Positions 7,905 to 15,369 of a stretch of DNA of 46,137 nt are shown here, in pieces. The translations under genes were made by a program, and so were the position numbers. Origin of the DNA: Candidatus Moraniibacteriota bacterium (GTDB lineage Bacteria > Patescibacteriota > Minisyncoccia > Moranbacterales > UBA1568); assembly GCA_016699385.1 (NCBI GenBank), contig CP064974.1, positions 758,654 through 804,790 of the forward strand, in the 5' to 3' direction. Below the pieces are notes generated by a model. It ran no database searches and had not been told where the DNA came from. It worked only from the letters and a program-made list of their open reading frames with translations. Within the stretch, counting starts at the first letter, position 1. Every line of letters starts with the position of its first letter.

Positions 7905-8447
7905 ATGAACACCGAATCAGTATCCCCCAAAACGCAAGATCTTGGAAACTTGGTTCTCGGCAATCTTACTTGGATGAAGTGCCAAGAAGATCCGGAATTA
8001 CGTGAGACTCCCGAAGGAATGAAACAGGTGCGCTGCGAGTTTATAAGCCTCTCGCCCACCATATTGGGGGATTTGTTGTTCGAGGTGGTATCCCTGACAT
8101 CTATCATGCAGTCAAAGCTCGCGTTTTTGCAGTATTGTCAGGAAAATGGATTCGTCCAAAAAATGATAGCCGCCATGCCGGAAGAGGCTCTGGGATGGAT
8201 GTCCAGAGGCGATGTACTAAAAAACATAGTCTCCACACTTGACTGTCTCATCGAGCTTGCCAAAAGCATAAGTGGCAATATCATTGGGTTCCTGGAGAAA
8301 AACGGGATTACCGAGGAACAGGTTTTAACCGCTCCCGAATCAAAACTCTGTCTCGATGAGAGTCTTCGAGGACGCTATCGTGCCGGCACGCTCACGATCC
8401 GTGAGTTGCTCTTGGAGCAACCGATGATTATCCTCAAGAACAGCTAG
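7905..8447 (+). CDS. Hypothetical protein (180 aa), no recognisable motif
   Basis: ATG preceded by AAAGGAGAG at good spacing. Followed by a terminator. Confidence 0.6.
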   Translation: MNTESVSPKTQDLGNLVLGNLTWMKCQEDPELRETPEGMKQVRCEFISLSPTILGDLLFEVVSLTSIMQSKLAFLQYCQENGFVQKMIAAMPEEALGWMSRGDVLKNIVSTLDCLIELAKSISGNIIGFLEKNGITEEQVLTAPESKLCLDESLRGRYRAGTLTIRELLLEQPMIILKNS

Positions 8448-8483
8448 GACGGAAGCGGTCGCTTCTTCGCTCTAAATCACAAA

Positions 8484-8514
8484 GCCCCTCCCGGATTCCG
8501 GCAGGGGCTTTTTA
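8484..8514 (+). terminator. Rho-independent terminator (copy A of a duplicated terminator module)
   Basis: GCCCCUCCCGG-AUU-CCGGCAGGGGC hairpin followed by UUUUU. It sits between convergent genes. Confidence 0.6.
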
Positions 8515-8558
8515 CTTCGAACGGTTTCTCTTTACTTTTCAAGCGCCTCAACAAGAGA

Positions 8559-8945
8559 TCAAATCTTCGAGTGAAGCGCGATGCGGTTTCCTTCGGTATC
8601 GAGGACAAGCGCCATAAAACCGTATTCGCCAATCGCCTTTTTCGGAGCAAGAATTTTGCCACCCGCCATCTCCACTCTCGAGAGCTCATTGGACAGATCG
8701 CCCGAATACGCCGTGAAATACACCAGCACGCCCTCCGCCGACGGCTTGTACCATTCCTTATGAAAGACGAGCGACCCCGCGGCGCCCTTCCCATCCGTCA
8801 TCTGAAACCACGCCATGTCGATCTCTCCCACCTGATTGCGACTCAATGTCACCTCCAAGACCGTCTCATAAAACTTCATCGCCCGCTCCATATCGACGAC
8901 GGGGATCTCAAACCACCCCACCGCATTGCCTTTTTCTTCCGCCAT
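8559..8945 (-). CDS. VOC (glyoxalase/bleomycin-resistance/dioxygenase) family protein
   Basis: 128 aa. GWFEIPVVDMERAMKFYETVL and ILAPKKAIGEYGFMALVLDTEGNRIALH fit the paired beta-alpha-beta-beta-beta VOC pattern. Confidence 0.85.
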   Translation of the reverse strand: MAEEKGNAVGWFEIPVVDMERAMKFYETVLEVTLSRNQVGEIDMAWFQMTDGKGAAGSLVFHKEWYKPSAEGVLVYFTAYSGDLSNELSRVEMAGGKILAPKKAIGEYGFMALVLDTEGNRIALHSKI

Positions 8946-9061
8946 AACGTTGTGTGAAAAAAATTATTTTACCCTTCAAGAGAGTACCATAGTTCCAGAA
9001 AATAATCATCTCCATGTTTTAACTCTACAAACTATTGACTTTATACTAAAAGTATGCTTTT

Positions 9062-9102
9062 ATACTCTGTTGGAATTTTCCAACGGAGTATGCAGCTTTT
9101 TT
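9062..9102 (+). terminator. Terminator-like hairpin inside the leader of the zinc-ribbon gene (possible attenuator)
   Basis: AUACUCUGUUGGAA-UU-UUCCAACGGAGUAU (14 bp, one G-U) at 9062-9091, then GCAGC and UUUUUU at 9097-9102. It lies 30 nt before the ATG at 9133. Confidence 0.4.
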
Positions 9103-9132
9103 AACAAATCTTATCAAGAAGGGATATTGCTC

Positions 9133-10419
9133 ATGTCAAACGATGAGACAACTATTGAGTATTTCTCCGCCCTTTGGGATTGCGAATATTGCAAAACAAG
9201 AGATATTTTCGCTCGTAACCCAAGAAATCCCGAGCAACGAATCGATCACTGTCCAAACTGTGGCGCCGCTATCCCGGAGCCGATTGATGTTGAGACGAGG
9301 GGTCACGAAGGAAACCCCTACAAAACTCCGAGTGAAGGTCAATGGACACAACTCCTCGACGCTTTCTCCGCTCAACAAGGAGAAGCCGGCCCGGATTGGC
9401 CATGCGAGTCCTGTTCCTCACTGAATTCCGATCTCCATTCCCACTGCGTCAGTTGCGGGCATTCGCGAGGAGAAGACCCGAGGGAAAAAGAAGTCACGGA
9501 AGACACCATGGGCAGAGAAGTCACAGCGAGGGACACTCCTTCCTCTACGGAAGAACGACCTCCGCAAGAAGCCATCCCACCACATCTCTCCAAAAGAGAT
9601 GCGGGGATCGAGCAAGAAACATGTCGGCATGAACCGACCGTTTCGAGCCACGGGCATCATCGCTCGAAAGCGCTCCCCATATCTGTGTGTTTCGCGGCTC
9701 TTGCCACTTGCATATGGTTGGTCTGGTTTTTCTTTTTCTCGGCTTCCGACGTGCAGGTGGAAGTAACCGGTCTTTCATGGGAAAGAAAAATCGCCGTGGA
9801 GGATTTTGCTCCCCGCCAAAGCGGAGCATGGAAAGGTACTGTTCCTTCCGATGCTTACAATGAGCAGGAAACTCGAAAAGTCCATCATTACAACAAGGTC
9901 CAAACCGGGACAAAGGTTGTCAAACACCAGCGATCGCGGCGCGTCCAGTCCGGCACTCGGCAGGAATGCTCGACGGAAAACAAAGGGAACGGCATCATCA
10001 AGCGAACCTGTCACAGTGTTCCCGAGTACAAAACGGAATACTACGCCGATCGCGATATCGAACCGGTATACCGCGATGACCCCGTGTACGAAACATGGGT
10101 GGACTACACCGTCAATCGATGGAAGTTTTCTCGGTGGATCACGGCATCCGGCAACAATCACGATGCTCACTGGCCCGAAACCCTGATTCATCCGGCTCAT
10201 TCGGCAATACCGAACATCGGAGACGAGCGTCTGGGCGAACGGACTGAACACTACACTGTCCGCTTACGCGAAATAGACTCGGATGAACCCCGCGTATGGA
10301 ACGAGACAGTGTTCCTCTCTCGATGGCAGCAATTCTCCATCGGCGAAAGCTTCGTCATACACACCAACCGCATAGGGACAATCCTCGGGTCACTGGAAGC
10401 AACAGCTTCCTCACCCTAA
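9133..10419 (+). CDS. Zinc-ribbon membrane protein (N-terminal double CxxC ribbons, one TM, about 190-aa C-terminal domain; hypothetical)
   Basis: ATG at 9133. CEYC..CPNC and CESC..CVSC pairs, TM helix LPISVCFAALATCIWLVWFFFF, then a Trp/Tyr-rich C-terminal domain. The upstream part of ORF 8926-10419 overlaps the VOC gene start and was rejected. Confidence 0.7.
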   Translation: MSNDETTIEYFSALWDCEYCKTRDIFARNPRNPEQRIDHCPNCGAAIPEPIDVETRGHEGNPYKTPSEGQWTQLLDAFSAQQGEAGPDWPCESCSSLNSDLHSHCVSCGHSRGEDPREKEVTEDTMGREVTARDTPSSTEERPPQEAIPPHLSKRDAGIEQETCRHEPTVSSHGHHRSKALPISVCFAALATCIWLVWFFFFSASDVQVEVTGLSWERKIAVEDFAPRQSGAWKGTVPSDAYNEQETRKVHHYNKVQTGTKVVKHQRSRRVQSGTRQECSTENKGNGIIKRTCHSVPEYKTEYYADRDIEPVYRDDPVYETWVDYTVNRWKFSRWITASGNNHDAHWPETLIHPAHSAIPNIGDERLGERTEHYTVRLREIDSDEPRVWNETVFLSRWQQFSIGESFVIHTNRIGTILGSLEATASSP

Positions 10420-10444
10420 GGAAATGCCTCACAGAACCACAAAA

Positions 10445-10474
10445 CTCCTCTCTGGATCCGGACAGGGGTTTTTT
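10445..10474 (+). terminator. Rho-independent terminator (copy B of the duplicated terminator module)
   Basis: CUCCUCUCUGG..CCGGACAGGGG hairpin followed by UUUUUU. The sequence is closely similar to 8471-8520. The stop codon of the convergent gene (10473-10475) lies in the T-tract. Confidence 0.5.
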
Positions 10475-11144
10475 ATTTCGAGAAAAGCTCATTCTTGTTT
10501 GTACGAGAATCATTATTCGGAGGATTAAGTTTTACATTACCGAAGAATCCCATTACAGCGGCAATCAAAATCACAAAAGCAGTAAGCATCAATAATTTGT
10601 AATATCTCTTACTCCAATCAGCATCCTTTTCAGATTTTCTAGGTAGAATAAGAAAGAATATCTGGAGAAAGAAAGCGCAAATTCCACCAAGTAGAGTAGA
10701 AAATATTATCGCCGAAACAAGATCAGATACTGTGCTGAAAATTTGAATATTAATAGAAAGAAAAGTAAAAAGCGCAACAAAAACTCCCAAAGTTTCTATG
10801 GTACGAGTTTCCCTTCCTTCCAGCTTATCCAAATCTTTCTTAAATGCACTTAGTTCACCTTTGATTTCACTGATGTCACTTTTCAACTTTTCAGACTCTT
10901 TCTCGCTCTCAGCTAAAAGCCTTTTAAGTCTTCTAAAATCACGAATAGTCTTCTCAATCTCCTCAATACGTTTGTTATATTTTGAACCTAATTCTGTAAA
11001 TTCTATAGATGGCTGACCACTTTCTAAAAATCGAACATTATCTTCTAATCGAAGACGACTCCCAATCGCTTTTTGAGAGAATACATCAACATTCTGTTCA
11101 CTTGTTCCTTCACCTGCACTATTTTCATCCGGCATATAATCCAT
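10473..11144 (-). CDS. Coiled-coil protein with three C-terminal TM helices (hypothetical; putative membrane effector)
   Basis: ATG at 11144 with GAGGA 10 nt upstream. Charged heptad-like region (EIEKTIRDFRRLKRLLAESEKESEKLKSDISEIKGELSAFKKDLDKLE), then TM segments LGVFVALFTFLSINIQIF, LVSAIIFSTLLGGICAFFLQIFFLIL and LLMLTAFVILIAAVMGFFG. Very AT-rich. Confidence 0.7.
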   Translation of the reverse strand: MDYMPDENSAGEGTSEQNVDVFSQKAIGSRLRLEDNVRFLESGQPSIEFTELGSKYNKRIEEIEKTIRDFRRLKRLLAESEKESEKLKSDISEIKGELSAFKKDLDKLEGRETRTIETLGVFVALFTFLSINIQIFSTVSDLVSAIIFSTLLGGICAFFLQIFFLILPRKSEKDADWSKRYYKLLMLTAFVILIAAVMGFFGNVKLNPPNNDSRTNKNELFSK

Positions 11145-11157
11145 CTTACGACATTCC

Positions 11158-11790
11158 TCAGAGGGACAACTGATTCAGAAATTTTACAATATTTCCTACA
11201 TCTTTTGTTTTATTATGGGCTTCTTCTAGAACATTTGTAATGAAACTTACATCTTGTTTTTTTATTTCATCCATGTACCTATTATTTACGTCAAAAGCCA
11301 CTTCTAGACTACGTAAATTATGATCAAATTTCACTGAAACATTATAATTAAATCGCTTATCCTCACTTACATAACTTATAGTTCGAGATTCTTTTGACAC
11401 ATCTAAATTAAATATTTTATCGAGTTGTTCATCAGATTCTTCCGCACCTGAAATGTCATATTCTCGAGAAAATATTGCCCCACAAAATTTCACTTTGCCA
11501 GCATTTTGAGCAACATTCTCTTGAAACATCTTGTTTCTCGCCTCAACTAGCACTTCAATAGTTTTCGTTAACTTATTCAGATCCGGACTTTCCTCATTAT
11601 TTCTTTGCAACTGAACTCTATTTGGCGATACTAACAATTCTGATTGAGAAGCACCTACTTTTATTTTCTTTACAGAGAATTCACCGATACTAAAAGCGTA
11701 CTCGGAAAGACCCTCCTGTTTATGAAGAAACTCAGCTACCAAATCAGCTGGATTATCAAACTCAACAGCAACGAGAATTGATTTATACAT
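11158..11790 (-). CDS. Hypothetical soluble protein (210 aa), AT-rich, coupled to the downstream coiled-coil/TM gene
   Basis: ATG at 11790 (the ORF-track start at 11805 is TTG). Uninterrupted frame with lysine/asparagine-rich composition. Its TGA lies 13 nt before the next ATG. Confidence 0.65.
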   Translation of the reverse strand: MYKSILVAVEFDNPADLVAEFLHKQEGLSEYAFSIGEFSVKKIKVGASQSELLVSPNRVQLQRNNEESPDLNKLTKTIEVLVEARNKMFQENVAQNAGKVKFCGAIFSREYDISGAEESDEQLDKIFNLDVSKESRTISYVSEDKRFNYNVSVKFDHNLRSLEVAFDVNNRYMDEIKKQDVSFITNVLEEAHNKTKDVGNIVKFLNQLSL

Positions 11791-11847
11791 AAATAAAATG
11801 CTCAATGCTTGTTACCACATCCCAACCAACTACCCACTACCACCCCC

Positions 11848-12870
11848 CTACTTCCACCCCTGACCCGTTATCCGCCAGACGATTTGTTCTTGTTGGACAT
11901 TGACGACGCCGCCGGGGGTTTGTTGGGGGACAATTTGTTGAAGTTTTTTGAATTCCATCGAGAGTCCGAAGAAATTGGACGCGTCGGCGGACTCGACAAA
12001 GGCGATGGTGTAGTCTTTGCGATTCTCACTCCGCCCGGCAATTTCTATTTCCGGATTCCACGGCTCGGTGAGATGCATCTCGGCATTGTAGGATTCATAG
12101 AGCGCGGAAAAGGTTTCGGCGAGCGCGGGGCTCGCCTCGACAATGGTCGAAACGCCCAAGTCCTCGCGCGCTTCTTTCCGCCCGATATAGTATTGGTGCG
12201 AATAGAGCTTCTCTGTAAAGTGTTCGATAATGTTCGCGATTTTTTCTTTGGTCATCGCGCGCAGGTGACTCTTGAGGAGCCGCTCGGCGAGAATCTTGAT
12301 GAGATTGTGCGTCCGATTCACATTGCCAAGAGCGAGGGGATGCACCGCGGGGGTCGCCTCCATAAATTTCATAAAGATATCGGCAAGCTTCTCGTCGCTC
12401 TTCACGCCGAATTTGTTCTTCGCGAGGTCGAAATAGCTCATCACCTCCTCGACCGAAATCGGAATGCGTCCTTCGGGATTCTTGGGATCGGCGGGATTGA
12501 AAAAGTTGGAGGTCGAGGGATCGATCGGTGAGAGTTCGCTCATATCGCTCATTACGATTTCGTCCGCACCGAGCGCGATCATCGTCGCCGCGGAGTGCGC
12601 CTTGTACGGCACGAGAACGGAAAATGTCTCGCAATATTCGCGGATCATCGAAACGAGACGCCACGGCACCATAGTGTCGCCGCCGGCGCTATAGAGGACG
12701 AGATCGATCCGCTTCGTCTTCCCGATCGCGCGAAGGCGCCGGCTCACAATGGGGATGATATCCATCGCGACCCGCGCATTGACCGGTCCCTGCCGATCAC
12801 TCGTCACGTACGCAATGACCCGCGACCCCCGCTCCCGCTCGATCGCCTCAAACAATTTTTTCCGTTCCAT
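11848..12870 (-). CDS. SDH-family Clp-fold serine protease (ClpP/SppA-like)
   Basis: ATG at 12870 (MERKKLFEAIERERGSRVIAYVTSDRQG). LVLYSAGGD and KAHSAATMIALGADEIVMSDMSELSPIDP resemble the serine dehydrogenase proteinase/Clp-fold family. Confidence 0.8.
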   Translation of the reverse strand: MERKKLFEAIERERGSRVIAYVTSDRQGPVNARVAMDIIPIVSRRLRAIGKTKRIDLVLYSAGGDTMVPWRLVSMIREYCETFSVLVPYKAHSAATMIALGADEIVMSDMSELSPIDPSTSNFFNPADPKNPEGRIPISVEEVMSYFDLAKNKFGVKSDEKLADIFMKFMEATPAVHPLALGNVNRTHNLIKILAERLLKSHLRAMTKEKIANIIEHFTEKLYSHQYYIGRKEAREDLGVSTIVEASPALAETFSALYESYNAEMHLTEPWNPEIEIAGRSENRKDYTIAFVESADASNFFGLSMEFKKLQQIVPQQTPGGVVNVQQEQIVWRITGQGWK

Positions 12871-12883
12871 AGACCTGTTCTGT

Positions 12884-12921
12884 AAAAAGAAAAACCGTTC
12901 CGGAAGTATATACCGGAACGG
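12884..12921 (-). terminator. Rho-independent terminator between the 373-aa gene and the protease gene
   Basis: Minus strand: CCGUUCCGG-UAUAUACUU-CCGGAACGG (9-bp perfect stem) followed by UUUUUCUUUUU. Confidence 0.65.
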
Positions 12922-12956
12922 CATGAGAGACAAGAATCATCAGTAAAATTTCGAGA

Positions 12957-14078
12957 TCACTTCATCTTTGCAAGAGTGTCGTCCTGAGCCCTTTTCTTTT
13001 CGTCAACTCTTTCTTTTTCTGCCACCTCTCTTGCATTGAACTCGTCTACGAGGGCGCTCAATCGATCGACAAGCTCCCGGTCATCACGAAACTCTGACAT
13101 CCATTGCCGCGCCACTTCGACATCGCCCTCGCCGCTCACAGAAAACCTTCGCCAGTCATCCTTCCGATAGTCAACAACCAGGGTATGCAGAATCTGGTGA
13201 CGGAATCCGGAGTCGCTTCCCGAGAGAGCCCTCAACAGCTTCGGCAGTTTCCATCCCTCGATCAAGGGTTGTTCGGCGGTATGGTACTCCGCCAAAAAAC
13301 GCACCTGACTCTCGAATAACCCGAGAGGATAGAGCGGGACATCATCCCATACGAACCGGTTAATGATGCTCGCATAACAGACAAGCGCTTCCTCCCATTC
13401 TTCTCTCGGCTTCGATTGCCCGGCGATTTCCGCCCGAATGATATTCCTCATCTTCAAGTCCGCCTTCACCTTCCAGTACTCGGCAATATCCTTTGAGCGA
13501 AGGAGTTGCTCAAAAGGAGAGTACCCCGAAGCGTCCTCCATATTGGAAAACACGGAAATGTCCCGAAGCGAATAGAGACGAAAAAGCTTCTCCCCCTCTT
13601 CTTCGGAAAGAAGCGCGAGAAGCTCCAAAATGAACTTATTGTATGTCCACAGGACTTCATGCCATTTGTCCGGGATGGTGCAAAAGATCGTCATGCTCCG
13701 AGCTCTTTCAGCAAACGATTCTGGACGATCGCAAAAATCCTTCCTCAATTCGGAACAAAAATCGCACACGAGGTCTGCGCAATAGGAAAGGAGTTTGGGA
13801 GAAAGCACGCGGAGAGCGCAAAGAAATCTCTCCCCGCAATAGGGTTTGAGAGTAGTAGTGCCCCGCCAATACAACGGATTAAATTCATCCGACGGAACGA
13901 TTAACAAGAAGAGTGCCCGCTTTTTGAATGAATCCCGCACATCCGAACCGAGAAGCGAAACAAGACTGTTCCATTCCCCTCTCGAAATAGTGTCCACCCA
14001 CTCTTTCCAGATGGCATCCTCACCACGCGGAAAATGTGTCGCAAAAAACCGTTGAAGAGATACTATCGTATTTTTCAT
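12957..14078 (-). CDS. Hypothetical protein (373 aa), Trp/Cys-rich and predicted helical, with a charged coiled C-terminus
   Basis: Long uninterrupted ORF with coding-like composition and no motif I can assign. It has its own candidate promoter and terminator. Confidence 0.7.
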   Translation of the reverse strand: MKNTIVSLQRFFATHFPRGEDAIWKEWVDTISRGEWNSLVSLLGSDVRDSFKKRALFLLIVPSDEFNPLYWRGTTTLKPYCGERFLCALRVLSPKLLSYCADLVCDFCSELRKDFCDRPESFAERARSMTIFCTIPDKWHEVLWTYNKFILELLALLSEEEGEKLFRLYSLRDISVFSNMEDASGYSPFEQLLRSKDIAEYWKVKADLKMRNIIRAEIAGQSKPREEWEEALVCYASIINRFVWDDVPLYPLGLFESQVRFLAEYHTAEQPLIEGWKLPKLLRALSGSDSGFRHQILHTLVVDYRKDDWRRFSVSGEGDVEVARQWMSEFRDDRELVDRLSALVDEFNAREVAEKERVDEKKRAQDDTLAKMK

Positions 14079-14169
14079 TTAATCTATCCTCTCATTGCCT
14101 GTGAAATACTCAAAAACCCACCTATTCTTGAACAGCTCAATACTTTTCCGAGTTGTTAAAGAACATGTA

Positions 14170-14198
14170 TTTTTATCATACGAAAAAATTTTTGTCAA
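14170..14198 (-). promoter_or_regulatory. Candidate promoter for the 373-aa gene (TTGACA-17 nt-TAAAAA)
   Basis: Minus strand: TTGACA at 14198-14193, a 17-nt spacer, TAAAAA(T) at 14175-14170. Confidence 0.3.
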
Positions 14199-14200
14199 TG

Positions 14201-14233
14201 AAAACGACTCTGCCGATTAAAGACAGAGTCGTT
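14201..14233 (-). terminator. Terminator candidate after the distal pilin gene
   Basis: Minus strand: ACGACUCUG-ucuuuaaucgg-CAGAGUCGU (9-bp perfect stem) followed by a short U-run (UUUUCAUUG). Confidence 0.5.
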
Positions 14234-14253
14234 CCAATTTTTCCCTCCAAGCC

Positions 14254-14715
14254 TTACCGGCTCGTCAGGATCGTCATGCCGCCTTCGGCATTGCAGGCGC
14301 GGACTGTCACCATATTATTGGCATCGCGAACGATGGAATACCCCGTGAGTGCCACCGTGCCATTGGGATCAGTCGGAATGCTCTTGAGGTAGCTTCCAAG
14401 CGCCGTGCCGAGATCCACACAGTCCGTCGCTCCGGAAACCGCGCATCCGCCGGTTGCAATCGCGCAGCCGGTCGCCGCCGTGCCGATCTGCCGCTCCGTC
14501 GTCGTGATCGCCGCCGGGAACGTCCCCTTGGTATCGTTTACATAGGTATGCACCGCCGAGAGAATGTTTTGGATATCCGTCGTGCGTCGCGCATTTCTCG
14601 TATCTTGAAATCGCTTTGCCGGGTCGAGTGCCACAAAAACGACGACTGCCAATACGGCAAGCAAACCGATAACCAAGAGAATTTCCATGAGCGTAAAACC
14701 TTTCTGCTGTTTCAT
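14254..14715 (-). CDS. Type IV pilin / type II pseudopilin-like protein (prepilin N-terminal methylation motif)
   Basis: MKQQKGFTLMEILLVIGLLAVLAVVV = class III signal peptide (G|FTLxE). Four Cys in the globular part. Confidence 0.9.
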   Translation of the reverse strand: MKQQKGFTLMEILLVIGLLAVLAVVVFVALDPAKRFQDTRNARRTTDIQNILSAVHTYVNDTKGTFPAAITTTERQIGTAATGCAIATGGCAVSGATDCVDLGTALGSYLKSIPTDPNGTVALTGYSIVRDANNMVTVRACNAEGGMTILTSR

Positions 14716-14856
14716 ATGATTTTTCTTTTACGAAATTAGAGTAAATGACACCTTACGATACACAACTTCCTCGTGCGTCAAAACGAAAATTACAAAACAC
14801 CGTTATCTCATATCGTTTTTGTTTTTAACGGATAGAAAATAGAAAAAACTTTTTTG

Positions 14857-14865
14857 AGTATAGCA
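14857..14865 (-). promoter_or_regulatory. Candidate extended -10 element (TGcTATACT) upstream of the distal pilin gene
   Basis: Minus strand: TGCTATACT, located just downstream of the stop of the upstream pilin paralog. No good -35. Confidence 0.3.
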
Positions 14866-14883
14866 CAATTCTACAAAAAAGCA

Positions 14884-15369
14884 TTATCGGGATACGGAAA
14901 TATTCGTCCCACCTTCTGCAGAACAGGCTTTGACCGTCACAATGCCATTTGCATCAACTGCGACGGAATATTTCGTCAAAGCCGCCGTGCCGCCATTTGG
15001 ATCAAGAGGAATTGTCTTGAGATACTTCGCCAGTGTTGCAGAAAAATTAACGCAGTCTCCGGTTGCAGCGACAGCACAGCCACCCGTTGCAATGGCACAT
15101 CCGGAAACCGCGGTGCCAAGTTGTTTTTCGGTTGTTGTGAGACCTGCTGGCATTGCACCTTGATTATCCACGATATACGTTTGAATAGCCGAGAGAATCG
15201 ATTGCACATCGGTCGATCGTTTCGCATCGCGCACATCACGAAAGCGTTTCGCTGGATCGAGTGCCACCAAAACCACTGTCGCCAAGACAGCAATCATGCC
15301 GATAACCAAGAGGATCTCAATAAGCGTGAATCCACCAACTCGATTTCTTTCGTTACAAAGTACTTTCAT
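14884..15369 (-). CDS. Type IV pilin / pseudopilin-like protein, tandem paralog of 14254-14715
   Basis: RVGGFTLIEILLVIGMIAVLATVV prepilin motif. Collinear with the neighbour (ALDPAKRF.D.R.A.R.TD.Q.ILSA..TY, GCAIATGGCAV, ...V.AC.AEGG). Confidence 0.9.
   Translation of the reverse strand: MKVLCNERNRVGGFTLIEILLVIGMIAVLATVVLVALDPAKRFRDVRDAKRSTDVQSILSAIQTYIVDNQGAMPAGLTTTEKQLGTAVSGCAIATGGCAVAATGDCVNFSATLAKYLKTIPLDPNGGTAALTKYSVAVDANGIVTVKACSAEGGTNISVSR

Follow-up and report, generated by a model that had tools for sequence, protein, structure and literature searches.

The four genes considered here lie side by side on the minus strand of a 46,137-nt stretch of the genome of Candidatus Moraniibacteriota bacterium (CP064974.1 of assembly GCA_016699385.1, positions 758,654-804,790), the whole of which is referred to as the window. 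In the order in which they are read, they are G1 (12957-14078), coding for a 373-aa, alpha-helical orphan protein of solenoid-like build; G2 (11848-12870), for a 340-aa serine protease of the SDH type with a ClpP fold; G3 (11158-11790), for a 210-aa soluble protein; and G4 (10473-11144), for a 223-aa membrane protein. A first-pass annotation had placed this block between obg and the type IV pilin genes and read it as a candidate defence-like module, with the caveat that two or three juxtaposed units might be involved. The list of open reading frames (ORFs) confirms the four ORFs at these coordinates, together with the obg and pilin genes on either side, and all four are real genes with homologues elsewhere. 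The caveat is borne out by the comparative data, which divide the block into three juxtaposed units, namely G1, G2 and the pair G3-G4, rather than one operon. The sharp break in base composition that had also been pointed out is present, the GC content being 55% in G2, 33% in G3, 35% in G4 and 53% in the next gene. Gene calls, clustering and family hidden Markov models (HMMs) were our own; protein families carry c numbers and loci L numbers, and each locus was inspected within 6-8 kb on either side of the match, on contigs many of which are short.

G3 and G4 constitute an exchangeable cassette of 1.37 kb and 35% GC (10482-11852, minus strand), the limits of which follow from a blastn comparison with L033, a locus whose flanks are 95% identical to those in the window. 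Similarity is lost at 11853 and found again from 10481 on. The stop codon of the protease occupies 11848-11850 and that of G4 10473-10475, and L033 holds a different segment of 2.9 kb at this position. The same cassette is found in the sister strain L104 at 96% identity. Elsewhere the position is taken by a DUF6941 gene followed by a c30 gene (L003 and L010), by a T4_Y00F-like gene (L004), or by a gene for a 177-aa protein next to a remnant of a VOC-family gene (L001), and in L009 the VOC-gene region begins 15 nt after the protease stop codon, leaving an empty site. Close relatives thus differ both in the presence of the cassette and in its identity (window, L033 and L009), and proteases that are 90-95% identical to each other carry different cassettes. 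No direct or inverted repeats flank the cassette (window 10300-12000), and an integron-like or transposon-like insertion was rejected for want of border repeats, integrase genes not having been searched for systematically. The gaps between protease stop codon and cassette are mostly 1-30 nt, which is too short for attC sites.

At the left junction of the cassette, a G-rich spacer (11791-11847, minus strand; sequence GGGGGTGGTAGTGGGTAGTTGGTTGGG...) separates the protease stop codon from G3, at a distance of 42-57 nt depending on the G3 start codon, and no terminator was found in it. Degenerate GGTAGT/TGGTAG-like units make up both this spacer and its counterpart in the sister strain (L104:80-126). 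The two strains, 96% identical, differ here by a 9-nt indel, and the spacer is absent from L033. It could represent a scar left at the junction, a tract prone to slippage or a structured leader.

The arrangement in the window is one instance of a wider pattern, in which the protease is followed on the same strand by a gene that usually begins 1-30 nt past the protease stop codon (e.g. TAAaATG). The slot is occupied by members of a few families that recur and are unrelated to one another, mostly in the order soluble protein, then membrane protein. In one type, a c3 protein of ~230 aa is combined with c9 (coiled coil and three transmembrane helices) or c76; in another, a DUF6941 protein (c1) with c8, c30 or c9; in a third, c11 or a Bro-N protein (c40) with c7. 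Some cassettes have an extra first gene, either c66/c80 or c71, the latter being DUF6680. The membrane partners have three transmembrane helices in c9, one each in c8 and c30, and two to three in c76. A recognised cassette lies behind the protease in ~21 of the 26 informative loci that were found with protease seeds (~80%), and the protease stands without one in L009, L007 and L030. G2 stays in place as a stable resident, and it is the genes downstream of it that change. A single protease may also have modules on both sides, as in L047 (5231-9089), where a c3-c9 module lies ~0.8 kb upstream and a DUF6941-c30 module directly downstream.

G4 is a member of the c9 family, with a charged helical head of ~115 aa, hydrophobic segments at about residues 115-133, 135-169 and 180-207, and the family motif IETLGxFVALFTFxS at the start of the first transmembrane helix; the coiled-coil head and three C-terminal transmembrane helices of the first-pass annotation are thereby upheld. 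It follows the G3 stop codon after a gap of 13 nt, with a Shine-Dalgarno sequence (GAGGAA) 9 nt before its ATG. The matches of G4 in Pfam, NCBIfam, PHROGs and PADLOC were discarded as coiled-coil artefacts; those in PADLOC were weak coiled-coil matches to LmuB and JetC, with E values of at least 1e-4. A metagenome scan with the c9 motif was built from a six-sequence alignment, an eight-sequence alignment being too diverse, and returned 55 loci, which were annotated with our HMMs and, with the earlier loci, gave 60 distinct c9 genes.

The gene directly upstream of c9 codes for a c3 protein in 27 of these 60 cases, a DUF6941 protein in 16 and a G3-like protein in six, and no family was detected in 11. 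A soluble partner therefore immediately precedes c9 in 49 of 60 loci, a conserved adjacency and order that mark G3-G4 as a two-gene module. The partners are shuffled, in that DUF6941 is paired with c8, c30 or c9, and c3 with c9 or c76. Whether a protease is present could be judged on 38 contigs, the other 22 being too short. It lies upstream on the same strand in 26 of the 38, and in 22 of these 26 the match to the soluble partner begins no more than 120 nt past the end of the protease match. In the remaining 12, where the contig extends upstream for 1.2 kb or more, no protease is present in that sequence, though one may exist elsewhere in the genome.

G3 itself is sparsely represented. Its start may be a TTG at 11805, which would add five residues (215 aa) and agrees with the lengths of the homologues. 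The protein is soluble, as first annotated, and has no transmembrane segment. An indexed search returned the near-identical match only, and an exhaustive search of 1.8 billion representative proteins added nine relatives at 26-34% identity to that one; matches to models of Pfam, NCBIfam, PHROGs and PADLOC did not rise above noise. The AlphaFold2 (AF2) model, with a predicted local distance difference test score (pLDDT) of 80 and a predicted template modelling score (pTM) of 0.75, has a duplicated beta-alpha-beta3-alpha unit. Its best match in a viral structure library is an unnamed protein (TM-score 0.54), besides TBP-like matches, and the Protein Data Bank (PDB) holds no convincing solved structure, the best being AdoMetDC at a TM-score of 0.30. 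These matches to a predicted model would describe the fold and not the function.

Compared by hhalign with an enriched c3 profile, G3 scores 49.5% (E 1.7e-4) when aligned locally and 80% (E 1.6e-6) when aligned globally, so that it would probably be a divergent c3 protein. The signal is moderate and appears with enriched profiles only, the single sequence scoring 2.6% against the c3 profile, which is no signal. The neighbours of G3 relatives were inspected at five places. A c9-family gene follows wherever downstream sequence exists, that is, in L038/L039, L040 and L041, and in L042 the contig ends 78 nt into the next ORF. The preceding gene codes for an SDH protease in L038/L039 and in L042, and for a c11-like protein in L040. 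In L041 it is the pair M.HinP1I/R.HinP1I after which the G3-like and c9 genes directly follow, with no SDH protease in the 3.4 kb upstream. This contig is recoded: over L041:1600-4600, UGA is a sense codon, read as Trp in the database protein there. The module has thus spread to a lineage or element with an altered code.

The neighbourhoods of c9-type pairs are rich in recurrent defence genes, although no background rate was computed for this adjacency. In three protease-less loci examined, the pair stands directly after a restriction-modification (RM) gene, which codes for a Type ISP enzyme 15 nt before the pair in L069, for an Eco57I/MmeI-type enzyme 43 nt before it in L084, where Abi_alpha follows the pair, and for R.HinP1I 38 nt before it in L041. 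In two further protease-less loci, L063 and L088, a TPR protein or GMP synthase is encoded upstream. Where the pair is linked to a protease, Type III Mod/Res genes, or a C5-methyltransferase with an EcoRII-C endonuclease, often come right after it. The Bro-N protein (c40) found right behind the protease in L018 (9084-9917) and L023 (9035-9853) matches the PADLOC candidate PDC-S13 with an E value of 8.5e-107, and also part of a Type I specificity-subunit model. Of the families compared with PADLOC-DB v2, it alone has a real match, and it is not found in the window; G1-G3 have no match there, and c1, c3, c7, c8 and c80 no real one. As far as PADLOC-DB v2, Pfam, NCBIfam and PHROGs are concerned, the first-pass statement that no named system is matched by the block stands. 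The idea of a prophage or lysis cassette was dropped, since IMG/VR viral contigs contain no relatives of the G2 protease or the c9 family; there is also no endolysin nearby.

The identification of G2 as an SDH-type Clp-fold serine protease stands. It matches Pfam PF01972 (SDH_protease) over residues 2-125 with 59.9 bits, above the cut-off of 31.3, and phrog_11747 over its full length (E 4e-38), and both LYSAGGD and HSAATMIALGADEIVM are found in the sequence. Its score of 67.5 bits against NCBIfam NF047768 lies under the equivalog cut-off of 250, and G2 is best classed as a divergent subfamily with an extra C-terminal region rather than as an NF047768 equivalog. At least 95% of the 49 homologues aligned, four distant ones among them (one cyanobacterial, three from phages), retain G63-G64-D65, S93, D117 and H225, and with the GGD oxyanion motif and Ser93/Asp117/His225 conserved, the enzyme is probably active. 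The ATG that gives 340 aa is backed by the N-termini of the homologues. The protein has no transmembrane segment and is cytoplasmic. A similarity to NfeD1b_N is weak (E 0.068; 13.2 bits, cut-off 40), no PDB sequence matches, and a literature search on PF01972, DUF6941 and SDH/Clp-fold serine proteinases found nothing relevant.

The description of all four genes as other than housekeeping is a poor fit for G2, a stable resident gene with 2497 homologues, the best 120 of which are 65-98% identical over the full length; the named ones among these 120 are almost all from Moranbacteria or other Patescibacteria. Upstream of the protease, other loci have varied housekeeping genes (PepA, DnaK, NrdD, PriA, ClpB/C, MraY-like), and since these differ among loci, the conserved block starts with the protease. 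Distant SDH homologues, with 22-37% identity and the same catalytic residues, occupy accessory positions in phages. In a Mu-like Shewanella phage the gene is placed between late activator C and the genes for lysis, in Porphyromonas phages it neighbours HicAB, and in a P2-like Burkholderia phage it follows the integrase. The two small genes after the protease in the Shewanella phage were considered as relatives of the cassettes and rejected as unrelated to them. An E. coli lambdoid phage-plasmid (NZ_CP081704.1; L101:2229-3224) has an SDH protease alone, in opposite orientation, between antiterminator Q and holin. It is 37% identical to G2 over 80% of the length of G2, and the gene is present (at least 99% identical) in 47 of 5426 complete E. 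coli genomes. This patchy, moron-like spread would fit a conflict role for stand-alone SDH proteases.

G1 is an independent gene outside the module: it ends in a strong terminator of its own, its homologues have unrelated neighbours, and it is absent from L001, a relative in full synteny with the window (pilins, protease, obg). The Trp/Cys-rich and helical character ascribed to it was recovered, with 12 Trp (3.2%), 8 Cys (2.1%) and a nearly all-helical AF2 model (pLDDT 80) in the form of an alpha-solenoid. The solenoid is a generic one, and the structure search gave no PDB match at E<0.001 and TM-scores of at most 0.33. No model in Pfam, NCBIfam, PHROGs or PADLOC matches G1 above the noise, and 14 homologues were found at 39-100% identity. 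In all three loci inspected beyond the SDH-linked relatives (L035-L037), the SDH protease is absent and the neighbours are NUDIX/polyprenyl synthase, NYN/MgsA and PHP/HAD genes; G1 adjoins the SDH gene in the window and L009 only.

The intrinsic terminator of the G1 transcript (12883-12922, minus strand), noted as strong at first pass, is confirmed by RNA folding. It consists of a 10-bp stem formed by GCCGUUCCGG and CCGGAACGGU around a 9-nt loop, followed by the U-run UUUUUCUUUUU, and folds with a free energy of -22.9 kcal/mol (z -2.95), only 1 of 200 shuffled sequences being as stable. A simple terminator scanner missed this hairpin between G1 and G2 because of its loop size. A promoter-like site at 12933-12905 (TTGTCT, 17 nt, TATACT) overlaps the terminator and is a weak consensus match only.

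Together with the anatomy of the genes, the boundaries and turnover of the cassette, the pairing rule and the neighbourhoods suggest a model of the locus. G2 would mark the 5' edge of a hypervariable slot in Moranbacteria-type Patescibacteria, providing the insertion site and the promoter, and G3-G4 would be a horizontal acquisition that fills the exact interval from the protease stop codon to the next gene. The pair would most likely be transcribed by read-through from the protease gene, and thus co-transcribed with it, the soluble protein being translationally coupled to the coiled-coil membrane protein of a modular family. The cassette may act as a conflict module that is complete in itself, of the abortive-infection or superinfection-exclusion kind. 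Its architecture would suit a soluble partner (G3) that senses a phage cue or restrains the effector, and a membrane partner (G4) that oligomerises via its coiled coil and acts on the membrane via its transmembrane domain. We lean, by a small measure, towards this picture as a whole: an independent G1, a conserved G2 at the edge of the slot and an acquired conflict cassette, G3-G4.

For G3-G4 taken by itself, a role as a defence module appears somewhat probable from the comparative evidence, because of the turnover of the cassette, the partner-shuffling architecture and the recurrent RM, Abi and PDC neighbours, and the pair is a credible candidate for an anti-phage module of an uncharacterised Patescibacteria family. 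The defence-like reading proposed for the whole block is accordingly backed by the neighbourhood for G3-G4 and not for G1, while a part for the protease in it is doubtful, as discussed below. Several observations weigh against the defence reading. Our RM HMMs match only 14 of the 60 c9 loci, many of them on short contigs, and no RM gene adjoins the cassette in the window itself. RM genes are common in Patescibacteria, which makes guilt by association weaker, and no homology of the cassette to experimentally validated defence proteins was found in Pfam, NCBIfam, PHROGs or PADLOC. Both samples are biased, as protease peptides served as seeds for the genome scan and the c9 motif for the scan of metagenomes. 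Finally, the cassette is perhaps not self-contained, given how closely it follows the protease in about two thirds of the loci.

The main alternative is a protease-gated three-component system in which G2, once the soluble partner passes on a signal, would cleave or degrade G3 or the coiled-coil head of G4 and so free the membrane-active transmembrane domain, one conserved protease serving interchangeable sensor/effector cassettes. We consider it possible but distinctly less probable than a self-contained cassette. A broader formulation seems equally tentative, namely a plug-and-play immune locus in which a conserved SDH/ClpP-fold protease would be the common executor for two-gene cassettes swapped at its stop codon, the protease-centred architecture being specific to Patescibacteria and having stand-alone cousins in the moron sites of prophages. 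Gating by the protease would account for its intact catalytic triad, for a conserved block that begins at the protease while the housekeeping genes upstream vary, and for its same-strand position ahead of the pair in 26 of 38 informative c9 loci (22 within 120 nt). It would likewise suit the many unrelated cassette families that begin 1-30 nt past its stop codon, the recognised cassettes in ~21 of 26 protease-seeded loci, and the distant SDH proteases in moron positions of four phage types (Mu-like, P2-like, lambdoid and Porphyromonas).

However, the two components occur apart. Twelve informative loci have the pair with no adjacent protease, at least three of them directly behind an RM gene, and L009, L007 and L030 have the protease with no pair. 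Processing of the membrane protein by the protease, as the sensor/processing/effector layout of the first-pass annotation would imply, is possible but unsupported. Nor do protease and cassette show signs of co-evolution, unrelated cassettes being served by proteases of 90-95% identity. The membrane families moreover have no cleavage motif in common, and profile comparison joins only c8 with c30 over most of their length.

It is less probable still that the locus has nothing to do with defence, the pair being an addiction (toxin-antitoxin-like) or membrane-homeostasis module and the protease a housekeeping quality-control enzyme with a tolerated insertion site at its 3' end. The order of soluble then membrane protein, the tight coupling and the small sizes do recall type II toxin-antitoxin organisation. 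The protease is strongly conserved and keeps its position in the sub-clade (pilins, protease and VOC/obg in the window, L001 and L009), and its weak NfeD1b_N similarity brings to mind the ClpP-fold NfeD protease with its membrane partner. Nevertheless, none of the partners yielded a toxin, antitoxin, SPFH or stomatin domain, the recurrent RM, Abi_alpha and PDC-S13 neighbours speak for conflict functions, and cassettes are replaced quickly between near-identical strains. Since toxin-antitoxin and abortive-infection functions overlap, this alternative is only partly distinct from a conflict cassette. A single operon of G1, G2, G3 and G4 acting together is highly improbable, for although in the window all four genes run in one direction at short distances, and G1 precedes the protease in L009 as well, they are parted by the terminator after G1 and do not stay together elsewhere, G1 being found among unrelated genes with no protease in L035-L037, the protease in the same synteny with no G1, G3 or G4 in L001, and G1 and the protease with no G3-G4 in L009.

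The region to the right of the cassette has accessory genes of its own. A VOC/glyoxalase-family gene (8559-8945, minus strand; Pfam Glyoxalase, E 8e-9) is the conserved right-hand landmark of the slot in the sub-clade and is 83-87% identical in L003, L009, L010 and L033. The remnant of it in L001, 52 bp or 17 residues long (L001:8579-8630) and next to the different 177-aa cassette gene, indicates that sequence was deleted at the right-hand edge of the slot. On the opposite strand, in the interval from the cassette to the VOC gene, lies a gene at 8926-10419, with its start probably near 9130, for a protein of 430-497 aa with two zinc-ribbon-like CxxC pairs, one transmembrane helix and a conserved C-terminal domain; matches to zinc-ribbon Pfam families are sub-threshold. 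This gene has its own terminator (10449-10468). Both the window and L033 (98.6% identical) have it, L104 has DNA that corresponds to its 3' flank, and the empty site of L009 is without it, which makes it a second accessory gene of the slot. Beyond the VOC gene, a 180-aa orphan with no family match is encoded on the plus strand (7905-8447). A homologue 63% identical to it lies inside the variable slot of L033 (2230-2772) in the opposite relative order, which points to local rearrangement of accessory genes round the slot.

On the other side of the block, two tandem paralogous type IV pilin-like genes (14254-14715 and 14884-15369, minus strand) lie immediately upstream of G1. Both proteins have the N-terminal sequence GFTLxEILLVIG, and the genes cross-match at 65-70% DNA identity in comparisons with relatives. 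A link between the block and the adjoining pilin operon was rejected because the adjacency is confined to this sub-clade. An Rfam scan of window positions 8000-15000 gave nothing credible.

The defence systems known in Patescibacteria, the candidate phyla radiation (CPR), are very few, and no more than one phage of the group has been described (PMC12366544). The conserved protease gene is a compact, recurrent and easily recognised anchor of a locus type, and dozens of genomes keep different uncharacterised two-gene modules behind it, near RM systems. If the cassettes are defence modules, this anchor gives a direct route to new sensor/effector families from uncultured bacteria. Should the protease be mechanistically involved, the locus would represent a new protease-gated immune design and provide the first function for a widespread, unstudied SDH family, including its members in E. 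coli prophages, where the SDH moron is uncharacterised and directly testable in E. coli.

Comparison with known systems places each part of the locus differently. The protease belongs to the same family as the prophage SDH proteinases (phrog_11747; 'SDH family Clp fold serine proteinase' in RefSeq, found in E. coli lambdoid prophages) and has the same conserved Ser/Asp/His residues. Unlike G2, the prophage enzymes stand alone with no c9-type cassette, and they are without the ~75-residue C-terminal extension of the Patescibacteria proteins. In NfeD/STOPP systems, a ClpP-fold protease is in an operon with a stomatin partner. The window likewise has a ClpP-superfamily serine protease beside a coiled-coil membrane protein, which might be its substrate, but G4 has no SPFH/Band-7 domain and G2 is a cytoplasmic enzyme of the SDH type (Ser-Asp-His), not NfeD. 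CBASS and Lamassu combine a conserved core enzyme with variable effector genes, and here too one conserved enzyme gene is followed by shuffled, non-homologous genes, many of which encode transmembrane helices. The core of the present locus, 65-98% identical, is however far more conserved than is usual in those systems, core and cassettes do not co-vary, and the cassettes also occur without the core.

The pair itself is reminiscent of small soluble/membrane systems. RexA/RexB of lambda is a two-gene abortive-infection system made up of a soluble sensor and a multi-spanning membrane effector. The San Juan system similarly pairs sjdA with sjdB, a protein with four transmembrane helices (PMC12366544). 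Like these, G3-G4 is a small soluble gene beside a small multi-pass membrane gene in a family found among defence genes, with no enzymatic domain and with probable co-transcription. The likeness is architectural only, as G3-G4 has no sequence or profile similarity to them in Pfam, NCBIfam, PHROGs or PADLOC; G4 differs in its long coiled-coil head and three transmembrane helices, and its soluble partner is interchangeable among three families.

Core defence hotspots and defence islands, a concept put forward for Pseudomonas (PMC10250203) and E. coli (PMC10121019), hold variable systems between conserved flanking genes. The locus resembles them in that conserved flanks, the SDH protease and, in the sub-clade, the VOC gene, bracket a slot that varies between near-identical strains, is empty in one relative and often includes RM systems. 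It departs from them in that the cassettes start 1-30 nt past the stop codon of the flanking gene, on the same strand, and in an occupancy of ~80%. The slot has more the look of an operon whose distal genes can be exchanged than of a classical hotspot.

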